From Methylomonas sp. EFPC3 (GTDB lineage: Bacteria; Pseudomonadota; Gammaproteobacteria; Methylococcales; Methylomonadaceae): a stretch of 64,000 bases of DNA. Both the position numbers and the translations under genes were made by a program. Location of the stretch: contig NZ_CP116398.1 in the NCBI RefSeq assembly GCF_029643245.1, positions 3,528,372 through 3,592,371 of the forward strand, given 5' to 3'. The notes under the pieces were generated by a model. The model was not told the origin of the DNA. It searched no databases and saw nothing but the letters and a program-made list of their open reading frames with translations. This document shows positions 10,953-15,419 of this stretch, piece by piece; position 1 is the first letter of the stretch, and every line of letters begins with the position of its first letter.

Positions 10953-11167
10953 TGGCCGCGCAGTCCCCGCCGCAAGTCGCCTGCCCGACCTGCCGTAAAC
11001 CGGTGGCCTGGGTTGCCGCCGAAAAATTCAAACCGTTTTGCTCGGAGCGCTGCAAGCTGATCGACCTCGGCGATTGGGCCACCGAAGCGCACAAGATTCC
11101 CGGTCCGCCGGTTTGGGACGACGAAAACCCCGACCTGTCGAACCTGGATGACGGTGAAGCGGGTTAA
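10952..11167 (+). CDS. yacG: DNA gyrase inhibitor YacG (zinc finger)
   Basis: CPTCRK...[15 protein letters not shown] motif. ATG overlaps the zapD TGA in an ATGA junction. Confidence 0.8.
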
Positions 11168-11266
11168 CACACCCGTTGCTGAGTCTGACCGCGGTCCGAT
11201 ATGAGGTGGCTGCAAAGCTCGGACGTGATAGTCAACAGCAATAAGGGATTTTGTCGAGAGGCCGCT

Positions 11267-12213: not shown

Positions 12214-13428
12214 TTAAGTGCGGTATTCGGCGTTGATTTTGACGTAATCGTAGGAAAAATCGCAGGTCAACACCTGTTCGCTGGCCGTGCCGCGGCCCAA
12301 ACGCACCGTGACGTCGATCTCCTGCTGGCTCATGACCCGCTGGCCGTCCTGTTCGGTGTAAGACGGCGCGCGGCCGCCGTTTTCGACGATGCAGACCGTA
12401 CCCAGGTAAATCTCGATCTTCTCCAGTTCCATATTTTCGACCCCGGCCCGGCCCACGGCGGCCAGGATCCGGCCCCAGTTCGGGTCGCTGGCGAAGAACG
12501 CGGTTTTGACCAGCGGCGAATGGGCAATGGTTTTTGCCACTTGCAGCGCTTCGCCGCTGTCGCGGGCTTGCTCGACGATGATGCGCATCAGCTTGGTGGC
12601 GCCTTCACCGTCGCGAATGATCAATTCCGCCAGCCGTTTGCAGACCGAGGTCAAGGCTGCGCTGAACGCCGCCAGATGCTCGCTGCCCGGCAGTATCTCC
12701 GGCGCGCCGCTGCAGCCGCTGGCCAAGACCACGCAGGCATCGTTGGTCGAAGTATCGCCGTCGACGGTGATCCGGTTAAACGATTGCTCGACCGCCGCAT
12801 TCAGGCACTCTTGCAGCAGACCCTGCTCGATTTTGGCGTCGGTGGCGATAAAGCCCAGCATCGTCGCCATATTGGGCTGGATCATGCCGGCGCCTTTGGA
12901 TATGCCGGTAATGGCGACCGGATGGCCGCCGATGTCGAGCTTCAACGAGGCGCCTTTCGGAAAGGTGTCGGTGGTCATGATTGCCCTCGCCGCCCGGTCC
13001 CAGTGCGATTCCGCCAGATTGGCGACCGCGGCCGGCAGTGCCGCCGCCAGTTTTTCCACCGGCAGCGGTTCGCCGATCACGCCGGTCGAAAACGGCAGCA
13101 CTTGCTGCGCCAACGCATCGACTTCTCCAGCCAAACCGGCGCAGCATGCAAAGGCGTCCTGCAAGCCTTGCTTGCCGGTGCCGGCATTGGCGTTGCCGGA
13201 GTTGACCAGCAGCCAGCGCGGGTTCATCGCCAAATGCGCCTTGGCGACCTGTACCGGCGCCGCGCAAAAGGCGTTTTGGGTGAATACCGCCGCGCAACTG
13301 CCGCCTTCGGCCATTGCGATGACCAAGATGTCGTCGCGCACGGTTTGTTTGATGCCGGCGTTACTGGAGCCGAGTGTGATGCCTTGGACGGCATACATTT
13401 CAGGAAATGAGGTGTCTCCGACTGCCAT
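12214..13428 (-). CDS. argJ: Bifunctional glutamate N-acetyltransferase / amino-acid acetyltransferase ArgJ
   Basis: 404 aa. TTDTFPK...ATMLGFIATD with the autocleavage site (ATML). Confidence 0.9.
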   Translation of the reverse strand: MAVGDTSFPEMYAVQGITLGSSNAGIKQTVRDDILVIAMAEGGSCAAVFTQNAFCAAPVQVAKAHLAMNPRWLLVNSGNANAGTGKQGLQDAFACCAGLAGEVDALAQQVLPFSTGVIGEPLPVEKLAAALPAAVANLAESHWDRAARAIMTTDTFPKGASLKLDIGGHPVAITGISKGAGMIQPNMATMLGFIATDAKIEQGLLQECLNAAVEQSFNRITVDGDTSTNDACVVLASGCSGAPEILPGSEHLAAFSAALTSVCKRLAELIIRDGEGATKLMRIIVEQARDSGEALQVAKTIAHSPLVKTAFFASDPNWGRILAAVGRAGVENMELEKIEIYLGTVCIVENGGRAPSYTEQDGQRVMSQQEIDVTVRLGRGTASEQVLTCDFSYDYVKINAEYRT

Positions 13429-13465
13429 TGTTTACCTTGTTAGACTGATTAACTAATTTTGTTGT

Positions 13466-13780
13466 GTCGCTATCGCGACGAATATTTTAATGTCGGTTCG
13501 CGGACCGACAACCGCGATACTTTTCTTTGCATCGCCAAAGAAAAGTATCCAAAAGAAAGGCGACCCGGACGCCGCTTAGCTCACTCGGCACATCCATGTG
13601 CCTCGCCCTACGGGTGCAATGCATGCAAATCGGCTATCCTGCCTATTTGTCCTGCGCTCCTCGCTTTCGACGGGGATCGACAGAAGGTGCTCCTGCCCCT
13701 CTGTCGATGTGCGGCATCCCTGCCGCACCCCTGCGGGCTATTCCCGCCGAAAGCTCCGGTGCTCGGCGCGGCATACGGGA
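13466..13780. repeat. Left arm of a ~315 bp inverted repeat, hairpin-rich
   Basis: Read directly from sequence. 13520..13780 is about 95% identical to the reverse complement of 14853..15113. Contains hairpins cttttctttg-N6-caaagaaaag, gtgcggca-tccc-tgccgcac and a nested atcgacaga(ggggc-agga-gcccc)ttctgtcgat. The outer 55 bp share palindromes with compensatory changes. Confidence 0.85.
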
Positions 13781-13913
13781 CCAAAACCATCCCGGAGTTT
13801 GAAAATTATATTGGTTGTCTATATACACCGTAGCCTCAATGCAGTGAAACGGAATCGAGGGTTAGAGTGCTTCGATTATCCACGATTCCACTACGCTTCA
13901 TGTCGGCTACTTG

Positions 13914-14759
13914 CTATAGGGATTCTGTTTCCTTGAGAGATTTGCCTTGTGCGTTTTTCCATGCCGTGAGTCCATTAGCTGTTCCCCCGTGAATAACCGC
14001 AGCAGCAGCGCTTGGGCTCGTGAACTCCGTATCTTTTGTGAAAAGCAACCTATCGCCATCACGGACAAGGAAGCCATCTTCTTTTAACTTCTGTCGTAAC
14101 GATATGAGCCAAGGGTATTTTTGGGCAGAATCGCGCTCCTGCAATACCGCATGGGAACCAGAAACCACAATAATTCCGTTTGGGGTTAAGTAGCCAGAAG
14201 CCTTTAGCCCCTTTAGCTCACAGAAGAGCATTTCATATGAACCGGAGTTGGTTTTTATTGCGGCAGTGGGGACGAGAGCTTCTACGCCAAGCGCAGGGAG
14301 AAGTTGCTGCATTTTCTCCAAGAACACCTCCATATCTTCTCTGTCGGACTCTGGGAGCTTTGCACCGCTAGATTGTGCGTTCTTGAGTATGGCGCGTCCA
14401 GATTGCTTTGCTTCGTCTATAAGACGGCCTTCCAAAAATCGAATATGCGCTTTGGTTAAATTCTCGTCTTTGCTTGTAAAGAAGACGATTTGATTCCAAA
14501 AGTCCTTTTCGAGATGGCTTTTGAGGCGATCTTTAATTGACTCAGCCTCTCCGATATAAAGAGCTGGCTTTCCTGTTTCTGTATCAATGCCCGTTAGGAA
14601 GTACACGCCTGCATTCGTTGCCTCTTCCCGAGCGAGAATGCTATCGAATTCTGTTCGAGGGCCTGCCACTGCTTTGCCCGTCCAATTTGAGAGTTCTGCA
14701 GTTCGCAACCGTTTTGGGTCACCATGGGCAAGAAATATTTTAATGGTTGCGCTAGCCAA
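13914..14759 (-). CDS. GIY-YIG nuclease family protein with C-terminal DUF4357-like domain
   Basis: 281 aa. GIY-YIG core GVYFLTG...LYIGEAESIKDRL. The C-terminal half resembles the DUF4357 domain that accompanies GIY-YIG modules. Gene GC is about 48% versus about 60% in the flanks. Apparent TTG start. Confidence 0.7.
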   Translation of the reverse strand: MASATIKIFLAHGDPKRLRTAELSNWTGKAVAGPRTEFDSILAREEATNAGVYFLTGIDTETGKPALYIGEAESIKDRLKSHLEKDFWNQIVFFTSKDENLTKAHIRFLEGRLIDEAKQSGRAILKNAQSSGAKLPESDREDMEVFLEKMQQLLPALGVEALVPTAAIKTNSGSYEMLFCELKGLKASGYLTPNGIIVVSGSHAVLQERDSAQKYPWLISLRQKLKEDGFLVRDGDRLLFTKDTEFTSPSAAAAVIHGGTANGLTAWKNAQGKSLKETESL

Positions 14760-14852
14760 GTCCTGAATCCGTATAACAAAAAGATAAATGGTTTCCGTAT
14801 ATCGTACGTATCCTTGAATAAAACCGTTTCTTTACTATCGAGACGGTTTTCC

Positions 14853-15168
14853 TCCCGTATGCCGCGCCGAGCACCGGAGCTTTCGGCGGGAATAGCCCGT
14901 AGGGGTGCGGCAGGGATGCCGCACATCGACAGAGGGGCAGGAGCCCCTTCTGTCGATCCCCGTCGAAAGCGAGGAGCGCAGGACAAATCGGCAGGATAGC
15001 CGATTTGCATGCATTGCACCCGTAGGGCGAGGCACATGGATGTGCCGAGTGAGCTAAGCGGCGTTCGGGTGGCGTTTCTTTTGGTGACTTTTCTTTGGCC
15101 AAACAAAGAAAAGTTACTCGGCTGTCGGGCCGAGACCCGACGTTAAATCAGGCCGTCGCGATAGCGAC
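14853..15168. repeat. Right arm of the ~315 bp inverted repeat
   Basis: Reverse complement matches 13466..13780. The mirrored ORFs on both arms encode near-identical peptides, which is an artefact of the repeat. Confidence 0.85.
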
Positions 15169-15194
15169 TCAACTGATCAGACAACCAAAAACAC

Positions 15195-15419
15195 TCAACC
15201 CACTTCCAAAACAACCACATACTCCCCATCACCCGCACGAGTCTCCAACACCTGATGCCCATTAATCCGACACCAGGCCGGAATATCCTGCATCACCCCT
15301 GGATCGGTGCATTCCACGGTCAATACGTCGCCGGATTGCAAGGTCTTGACCTTGTCCTGGGTGCGGATTACCGGCAACGGGCACAGCAGCCGGCGTGCGT
15401 TTAACGTGAATTCGCTCAT
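15195..15419 (-). CDS. TusA-like sulfur carrier protein (SirA/YedF/YeeD family)
   Basis: 74 aa. CPLPV active-site motif. ATG overlaps the stop of the upstream PP-loop gene in an ATGA junction. Confidence 0.75.
   Translation of the reverse strand: MSEFTLNARRLLCPLPVIRTQDKVKTLQSGDVLTVECTDPGVMQDIPAWCRINGHQVLETRAGDGEYVVVLEVG

Follow-up and report, generated by a model that had tools for sequence, protein, structure and literature searches.

Here, we describe the locus between tusA and argJ in the methanotroph Methylomonas sp. EFPC3, contained in a 64,000-nucleotide stretch of contig NZ_CP116398.1 (positions 3,528,372 to 3,592,371 of the forward strand; hereafter the window, numbered from its first letter). 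A single gene encoding a GIY-YIG nuclease lies there between two long inverted repeats, or arms, which together make up a foldback. We consider it probable that this gene is an integron-type cassette docked at the GTT of a conserved leader, inside an ancient structured foldback that Methylomonas has kept between tusA and argJ. The best-supported view of the slot is that its cassettes are exchanged quickly and include many candidates for single-gene defence. The first-pass annotation of this DNA had suggested that the nuclease with its long inverted repeats could be a new mobile or selfish cassette, or a defence-like nuclease island, of an architecture not standard for an IS, MITE or homing intron. 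The nuclease and the repeats do not form one mobile unit: the gene and the arms occur apart from each other, and the cargo behaves as a standard integron-type cassette, with a G/TTRRRY boundary (the slash marks the junction) and, in sister loci, an attC site.

The probable cassette slot between tusA and argJ

A repeat search of the window returned an inverted repeat pair of 309 nt at 93% complementarity (13486-13794 versus 14839-15147) and an extra outer inverted pair of 20 nt (13461-13480 and 15154-15173). Aligned with each other, the arms are 91.3% identical over 335 nt by BLASTN and match at 306 of 334 positions in a global alignment, the outer 100 nt at 81% and the inner 234 nt at 96%. The pair exceeds chance expectation by far, and the folding of each arm scores z = -6.4 to -6.7 against shuffled controls. 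The space between the arms holds a single long open reading frame (ORF), the PDC-S14-family nuclease gene at 13914..14759 on the minus strand, which encodes 281 amino acids at a GC content of 0.48 (neighbours, 0.55-0.62); argJ and the tusA-like and thiI-like genes lie on the same strand. Much of the first-pass description is thus borne out: two long inverted arms with a near-identical core and more divergent termini flank one 48%-GC gene between argJ and tusA (its coordinates fell a few bases short at each end), no transposase, integrase or target duplication is visible in the window, and a horizontally acquired, low-GC, defence-like nuclease cassette in a housekeeping region is supported.

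We inspected homologues of the gene outside Methylomonas together with their surrounding DNA, namely L001, L002 (a gammaproteobacterial metagenome-assembled genome, MAG), L003 (Janthinobacterium sp. B9-8), L004 and L005 (a metagenome organism). Their DNA similarity to the window (86-87% nucleotide identity) does not extend beyond 13907-14777, a segment made up of the ORF and the 18 nt ahead of it, and neither arms nor any inverted repeat surround the gene in these loci. The first-pass annotation had held that the same gene without repeats at a syntenic position would count against its proposal; such repeat-free copies exist in Janthinobacterium and the gammaproteobacterial MAG at 87% nucleotide identity, but not at a syntenic position.

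The boundaries of the homology are those of an integron cassette. Similarity to the L003 and L025 copies begins exactly at the G of GTTATAC, an integron-type core site at 14771..14777 (minus strand) that sets the 5' boundary of the cassette at G/TTATAC, and in L004 this core precedes the start codon. At the other end, GTATAAC, which complements GTTATAC exactly, overlaps the stop codon and closes the L025 and L004 cassettes. Such complementarity between the 5' core and the inverse core of one cassette marks an integron cassette that was at one time closed through its own attC. In L001 and L003, small same-strand genes form cassette arrays, separated by canonical attC sites (GCCTAAC...GTTAGC). 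Beside the array that carries the PDC-S14 homologue in L003 (4711-4782, minus strand) lies a 24-amino-acid stretch 58% identical to the N-terminus of IntI1, which by its sequence is probably a decayed integron integrase.

Arms are present at the same locus in at least 10 other Methylomonas genomes and contigs, around different cargo, and at least eight other unrelated cargos stand between arms at the tusA-argJ locus. In an alignment of 11 loci, the side-specific leader between the tusA-side arm and the cargo (14778..14838 in the window, minus strand) is conserved up to ...ACTT-GTT(A/G), with no similarity beyond. Cargo always begins at the same GTT after this leader, and its far end is often a canonical attC, with an inverse core complementary to the 5' core. 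The heptamer that follows the leader equals the reverse complement of the ORF end exactly in L008 and L019 and with one mismatch in L015 and L020. The canonical attC of L020 is 55 nt long and, as we presume, closely resembles the attC of aadA, and the Methylomonas contig CP143089.1 (L030) reads leader-GTTAGGC-ORF-GCCTAAC-113-nt hairpin-GTTAGGA, its 113-nt attC folding with the R''/R' stem at the base. L026, another Methylomonas, holds the same PDC-S14 cassette as the window in the same slot and with the same 5' junction, followed by a different downstream element. Counted by eye, attC-like sites number two or more in L008, L020 and L041 and at most one in the window, where it is degenerate (SALIN-like, as in integrase-less cassette sites). 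The shared GTT junction of unrelated cassettes, together with the complementarity of their 5' and 3' cores, argues for site-specific insertion. The leader would be an attI-like docking region, possibly with a promoter. IntI can place cassettes at GWT sites throughout a genome, and promoters close to these sites then drive their expression (10.1101/2022.09.11.507474).

The same comparison illustrates the range of cargo. Methylomonas aurea SURF-1 (L006), the sole match in a genome-collection scan with an arm 20-mer (which lies inside an optional 69-nt module and is uninformative on the copy number of short-form arms), shares the argJ-tusA locus: its flanks are ~94-96% identical to those of the window, and the same two arms enclose two unrelated AT-rich ORFs. 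In M. koyamae (L041), the closest relative, the flanks are 96-97% identical and the cargo is a DUF3644/PDC-S19 gene, and in CP143089.1 it encodes a 151-amino-acid protein without family match. An arm 22-mer matched 15 metagenome stretches; the order tusA, arm, cargo, inverted arm, argJ recurs in L008/L021, L010, L015/L022, L019 and L020, with flanking genes 78-84% identical to the window, and the cargo of the metagenome slots measures 1.0-1.7 kb, has 39-48% GC and is different in each locus. Every cargo gene is oriented from tusA to argJ. Family matches among the cargos are PDC-S19 (4e-148), PD-T7-4 (2e-77) and Mrr_cat (1e-14, an Mrr-like nuclease), the remaining cargos having none; anti-phage genes are known to be stored in the cassettes of chromosomal integrons (10.1101/2024.07.02.601686). 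An empty argJ-tusA junction, which the first-pass annotation had suggested looking for in relatives, was found in a Methylococcaceae MAG (L043; ArgJ 79% identical), in which tusA and argJ are 82 nt apart with no arms.

Several observations weigh against an integron-type cassette at an attI-like dock. An integrase is absent from the 64-kb window and from every fetched Methylomonas locus in a tblastn search whose query was a presumptive IntI1 sequence and whose sole positive control was XerC, detected in L024 at 1.6e-13; a crude scan for the tyrosine-recombinase box-II motif was also negative. A sigma-70 consensus scan flags no leader promoter in the window or L019, and it does flag a leader site in L020. 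The window cassette has no canonical attC: its degenerate, R''-like inverse core CTATAGC (13913..13919, minus strand, overlapping the stop codon; GTATAAC in homologous cassettes) carries two mismatches, and directly after the ORF follows an imperfect palindrome with GTAG...CTAC ends (13830..13910, no strand assigned), with no closing GTT. M. aurea and L041 share this palindrome behind different cargo; it is a degenerate attC or else a REPIN-like element. Purine-rich sequence following GTT may in part represent Shine-Dalgarno sequences rather than a core site. Finally, templated (quasi-palindrome) repair can give compensatory changes without selection, and the covariation of the arms described below is no proof that they function.

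The cargo of the window is a GIY-YIG/DUF4357 protein, as first annotated. A DUF4357 match (PF14267, 8e-22, above the gathering score) covers its C-terminal, SAND-MPND-like domain, and the N-terminal domain has the features that define the GIY-YIG superfamily (alpha/beta fold; GIY, YIG, Arg, Glu and Asn motifs). The PADLOC profile PDLC04923 for PDC-S14 matches over the full length (residues 2-279, 1.9e-102). A PDB sequence search and Foldseek gave no match, and exact-sequence look-up of the window nuclease and ArgJ proteins gave no record. The family is very large and highly conserved, with more than 7,600 homologue matches, many of them 70-96% identical, across Beta- and Gammaproteobacteria. 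The protein shares the GIY-YIG catalytic fold with R.Eco29kI-type restriction enzymes and PDC-S14, the latter with a near full-length profile match, and resembles modification-dependent nucleases in its fusion of a nuclease to a DNA-reader domain. Its most likely role, we infer, is single-gene defence against phages by a nuclease activity akin to type IV restriction; the literature searched held no experimental evidence for defence by PDC-S14. The start codon (14757-14759) is TTG in the window and ATG in every homologue inspected, and in other respects the ORF is complete, with 96% identity to its nearest relative.

Structure and history of the arms

The usual arm is ~265 nt long, and arms of the element range from about 265 to 335 nt. 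Both window arms, delimited by repeat search, alignments and nhmmer, are of the long form: the tusA-side arm occupies 14839..15173 (minus strand, its outer-to-inner sense being the direction of transcription) and the argJ-side arm 13461..13794 (plus strand, outer to inner). Each begins at its outer end with two terminator-like hairpins that face entering transcription (H1 and H2, at 13466-13479 and 13492-13509 in the argJ-side arm). These are followed by a third hairpin, H3 (13516-13549), with a purine tract (13549-13560; hairpin and tract together at 15073-15117 in the tusA-side arm), by the optional 69-nt module, by a multi-branched inner domain and by an invariant 22-nt motif (13759-13780 and 14853-14874). 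The 69-nt module, which forms three small hairpins, is present in both window arms (~13578-13649 and ~14983-15054), the argJ-side arm of M. aurea, L014_b and the tusA-side arm of L041; it is absent from most arms and looks like a nested insertion within the repeat. At its outer tip (~15162-15173) the tusA-side arm of the window carries a 12-nt insert, CTGATCAGTTGA, relative to L007 and L041.

A sigma-70-like site inside the argJ-side arm (TTGTCG-16-TAAAAT, 13484..13511, minus strand; a consensus match only) points outward to argJ, whose start codon lies downstream of it, 32 nt beyond the arm. Inward-facing terminator-like hairpins combined with an outward promoter-like site in each arm would make the element tolerable in an operon-like region without silencing argJ. 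Look-alikes of Tus/Ter, matS, IHF and sigma-32/54 sites, judged by eye, were poor matches, and the idea that the arms are giant attC sites was dropped, as they have no AAC/GTT boxes.

Arms group by side, those next to tusA being alike across genomes and those next to argJ likewise, which indicates that the pair is old and inherited. The inner parts of the two arms are homogenised with each other in the window and in M. aurea. Between genomes, tusA-side arms are 93-96% identical where the adjacent genes are only 80-84% identical, a conservation that could reflect exchange between lineages or strong selection. BLASTN and profile nhmmer found only the two copies in the 64-kb window, and arms also stand at the same locus in other genomes and, in one metagenome organism, between rnfG and rnfE (a cargo-less pair with a 190-bp centre and no ORF) and beside rlmL. 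The rlmL copy is a third arm locus (L009, contig Ga0208264_1000012, 4206-4490 and 4515-4796), next to rlmL and a HicB-like antitoxin gene; its H3 region is interrupted by a ~90-nt insertion, and the arm is partial, the locus ending with the fetched DNA. No match was obtained for the invariant 22-mer in viral contigs, for the inner part of the arm in phages, for the leader in plasmids or for the outer module in E. coli genomes, and a literature search with sequence words gave irrelevant primer matches only.

Extra partial or tandem arms and ORF-less attC-like units occur in L008 (1051-1096), L010 (1723-2260), L018 (3328-3977) and L041 (3792-4468). The tandem extra arms of L010, L018 and L041 copy flanking sequence and hence arose by local duplication, and these loci show that the slot grows and shrinks through local duplication and recombination.

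Part of the arm recurs far outside Methylomonas. H3, a 14-bp A/T hairpin, and the purine tract behind it have counterparts of ~45 nt, 86-92% identical, between genes of Pasteurella, Burkholderia, Ralstonia, Aeromonas, Pseudoalteromonas and Chitinibacter. The Pasteurella module, between dapF and a DUF484 gene, and the Ralstonia module, between cphA and a flavin reductase gene, each lie near both tips of a 400-500-bp foldback. Beyond the two window copies (13516-13560 and 15073-15117), the module sites are L024 4002-4050 and 4360-4411, L028 3502-3550 and 3890-3935, L023 4003-4045, and L027 3502-3548. The hairpin takes one of two forms, either CTTTTCTTTG/CAAAGAAAAG, always followed by CAAAAGAAAG, or CTTTCTTTTG/CAAAAGAAAG, always followed by CAAAGAAAAG, a rule that held in every copy examined, the Pasteurella arm included. 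The third tract is always the mirror image of the purine strand of the hairpin, and the three strands co-vary. A mirror-image third tract meets the requirement for an intramolecular triple helix, and judged by its sequence the module could form one, as R.R-Y on this strand or as U.A-U/C+.G-C on the complementary strand. An alternative in which the third purine tract pairs with H3 at its 5' arm works for the first form and not for the second, and the mirror or triplex reading is preferred.

The RNAalifold prediction for the arm comprises three hairpins in the outer part and a multi-branched domain in the inner part. In the alignment 98.2% of cells pair, and 23 pairs (111 cells) show compensatory changes, a level reached by none of 500 shuffles; slid controls gave 0-3 such pairs. 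Nearly all changes lead from one Watson-Crick pair to another, and G.U is rare. This extensive compensatory change raises the possibility that the arms are functional structured RNAs or DNA structures serving the slot, whether by insulating or regulating toxic cargo or through a transcript-stabilising triple helix. The invariant 22-nt motif, the terminator-like hairpins facing transcription from outside each arm, the three-way covariation of H3 with its mirror tract in Methylomonas, Pasteurella, Burkholderia, Aeromonas and Ralstonia, and the higher conservation of tusA-side arms than of neighbouring coding DNA all point the same way. On the other hand, the operon would transcribe the two arms in opposite senses, hairpin symmetry can be maintained without selection, and no Rfam family matches, the window arms and the Pasteurella and Ralstonia foldbacks giving only sub-threshold generic hairpin or miRNA matches. 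Nor is there a clear strand bias: on the outer-to-inner strand we counted 15 A.C and 5 G.U cells, neither side-specific nor independent, and these counts do not decide between RNA and DNA folding, or between strands. A functional role of this kind, which is compatible with an integron-type cassette as cargo, is possible but on balance somewhat unlikely.

Alternative explanations and known systems

Turnover of the slot might instead depend solely on homologous recombination, in the conserved arms or flanks, with DNA that has been taken up. The locus would then be a generic variable hotspot, and its GTT and attC-like features would be leftovers of the donors without a part in the slot. Comparison of the window with L041 fits this account, in that homology stops at 14831, just inside the arm, the entire inter-arm block including the leader differs, and the two leaders are much more divergent than the flanks; the breakpoint is in the arm, and the complete inter-arm block was exchanged in this case, for which homologous recombination between arms is the simplest route. 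Arm-mediated exchange would likewise fit the high identity of tusA-side arms relative to their flanks, and no integrase lies nearby. What the hotspot account leaves unexplained is why unrelated cassettes join the leader at the same GTT. Moreover, the joining heptamer matches the cassette's own 3' inverse core, which is expected only if the cassette entered as a circle through attC. We therefore regard recombination alone as an unlikely explanation and favour site-specific docking of cassettes at the leader.

We also weighed a composite transposon bounded by miniature transposable elements with inverted repeats (MITEs), of the integron mobilization unit (IMU) or TIME-COMP type, in which the two arms would be non-autonomous copies of a transposon and a transposase in trans would move arms and cargo together. 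Passages in two reports document MITE pairs that bracket integron cassettes (PMC3575428, PMC13367494). The arm pair at rnfG-rnfE and the partial single arm beside rlmL in one metagenome organism, the arm termini, which read TG...CA, and the related foldbacks in intergenic DNA of Pasteurella and Ralstonia would all suit such an element. However, no target-site duplication was seen at the window, L014 or L024 junctions inspected, and an individual arm has unrelated outer and inner ends and carries neither its own terminal inverted repeats nor Tn3-type or GGGG-type ends. The foldback keeps to one fixed locus across species whose genes are 20% different, the grouping of arms by side indicates vertical descent, and the tandem arms, which duplicate flanking sequence, reflect local duplication. 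Transposition as a composite is thus quite improbable.

IMUs, TIME-COMPs and the 439-bp MITEs of Acinetobacter resemble the locus in having integron-type cassettes between two copies of a non-coding repeat, each a few hundred bp long, without an internal transposase. Their repeats are recent and reside on plasmids, with terminal inverted repeats of Tn3 or IS type and target duplications of 5 bp, whereas the Methylomonas arms, which are ancient and hold a fixed locus, lack such ends or duplications (the ~38-bp Tn3-family inverted repeats of TIME/IMU units were not found in them) and maintain their internal hairpins by compensatory change.

That the GIY-YIG nuclease and its two inverted repeats are one selfish mobile cassette, with the nuclease as homing or transposition enzyme, is very hard to sustain: the nuclease is the only inter-arm ORF, is low in GC and has no other mobility gene in view, and GIY-YIG enzymes drive homing elsewhere, but the arms go with at least eight different, unrelated cargos and occasionally with none, the homologues in L001-L005 have no arms and share only the ORF plus 18 nt, the arms, orthologous by side across species, are older than the cargo, and the window gene has no intron or ribozyme and its neighbours differ in every genome inspected.

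The nearest known category for the slot is an integrase-less cassette site (CALIN or SALIN) or a preferred genomic insertion site. In common with CALIN/SALIN cassettes and attG insertion it has a promoterless ORF, a G/TTRRRY 5' boundary, no adjacent integrase, an attC inverse core complementary to the 5' boundary in sister loci and homologous cassettes, the same gene in true cassette arrays elsewhere, and expression that would rely on a resident upstream promoter, here a putative one in the leader. By contrast with CALIN and SALIN sites, the Methylomonas slot has one fixed docking point behind a ~60-90-nt leader, is reused across the clade with 1-3 cassettes, and is framed by long structured inverted repeats; in the window, its attC is degenerate. 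Sedentary chromosomal integrons sit at a conserved locus, as in Xanthomonas next to ilvD. Like these (see also 10.1101/2025.06.18.660453), the slot combines a conserved position with cassettes, defence genes included, that vary between strains and species; sedentary integrons keep intI and attI beside the array, whereas no integrase was found within 13 kb on one side and 49 kb on the other in the window. REP/BIME/REPIN, ERIC and Correia-like foldbacks are likewise non-coding nested palindromes tolerated in operon spacers, and the GTAG...CTAC ends typical of REP sequences resemble those of the palindrome at 13830-13910. The arms differ from REP-type families in being much longer, multi-domain and apparently low in copy number, in having no GTAG, and in framing a gene-capture site. 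Cassettes, CALINs, repeat-bracketed cassettes and intergenic foldbacks thus each have precedent; what we did not find described is their combination in a platform that has a fixed position, a single slot and no integrase, and whose frame is a pair of long structured inverted repeats with a triplex-capable module.

Flanking genes, proposed history and significance

The upstream flank begins with the tusA-like sulfurtransferase gene (15195..15419, minus strand; NCBIfam TusA 2e-13, under the curated cut-off, with Pfam TusA in orthologues), whose stop codon lies ~20 nt ahead of the arm, and the thiI-like gene comes after it in the flank. Downstream lies argJ (12214..13428, minus strand; NCBIfam ArgJ 5.9e-160), whose product is 99% identical to ArgJ of Methylomonas koyamae. 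TusA has 88 amino acids in the arm-less L043 (4652-5001) and 74 in Methylomonas, where its stop codon falls 10-25 nt before the arm (window 15195-15230); the 3' end of tusA may have been clipped by insertion of the foldback. In M. aurea an additional hairpin-rich segment of ~235 bp (L006 1478-1714) separates tusA from the arm. About 2 kb from the cassette slot there is a second small variable spot, between a NUDIX/ThiE-like gene and yacG, where M. aurea (L006 5981-6766) and CP143089.1 (L030 6700-7485) carry a gene for a 261-amino-acid SAM-methyltransferase with a weak PADLOC match to mad2; the window is without this gene (~11140-11255).

We propose the following history. A foldback of two inverted structured repeats would have inserted between tusA and argJ in the ancestor of the Methylomonas clade and then been inherited, with occasional gene conversion or exchange between its arms. 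At its centre, the conserved leader ending in G/TT would serve as an attI-like docking point for promoterless integron-type cassettes, which an integrase encoded elsewhere, or transiently supplied, would insert or replace at the leader GTT. Homologous recombination in the arms would in addition swap the whole inter-arm segment between strains. The product of the cassette now in the window would be a GIY-YIG nuclease fused to a SAND/RAMA-like DNA-reader domain.

A bolder extension, which we hold only tentatively and think rather unlikely, is that foldback and leader constitute a dedicated integrase-less 'cassette dock', a new integron platform with an attI-like site and an expression signal. 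Its arms, through single-stranded DNA or RNA hairpins and the triple-helix module, would promote capture, insulate toxic cargo or give portable homology for exchange.

Integron cassettes are a large reservoir of anti-phage genes, and their use outside classical integrons is barely charted. The locus described here would be a natural one-slot expression site at a fixed position, kept by a whole methanotroph genus, and its content differs between strains whose flanks are only 3-4% different. It thereby offers a testable case for the recruitment of a trans-acting integrase at a non-classical site, for the turnover of defence genes in environmental bacteria, and for the function of a conserved hairpin-plus-mirror-repeat module that several proteobacterial orders share. 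The locus also yields compact candidates for defence by a single gene, among them PDC-S14, PDC-S19, PD-T7-4 and several without a family match.

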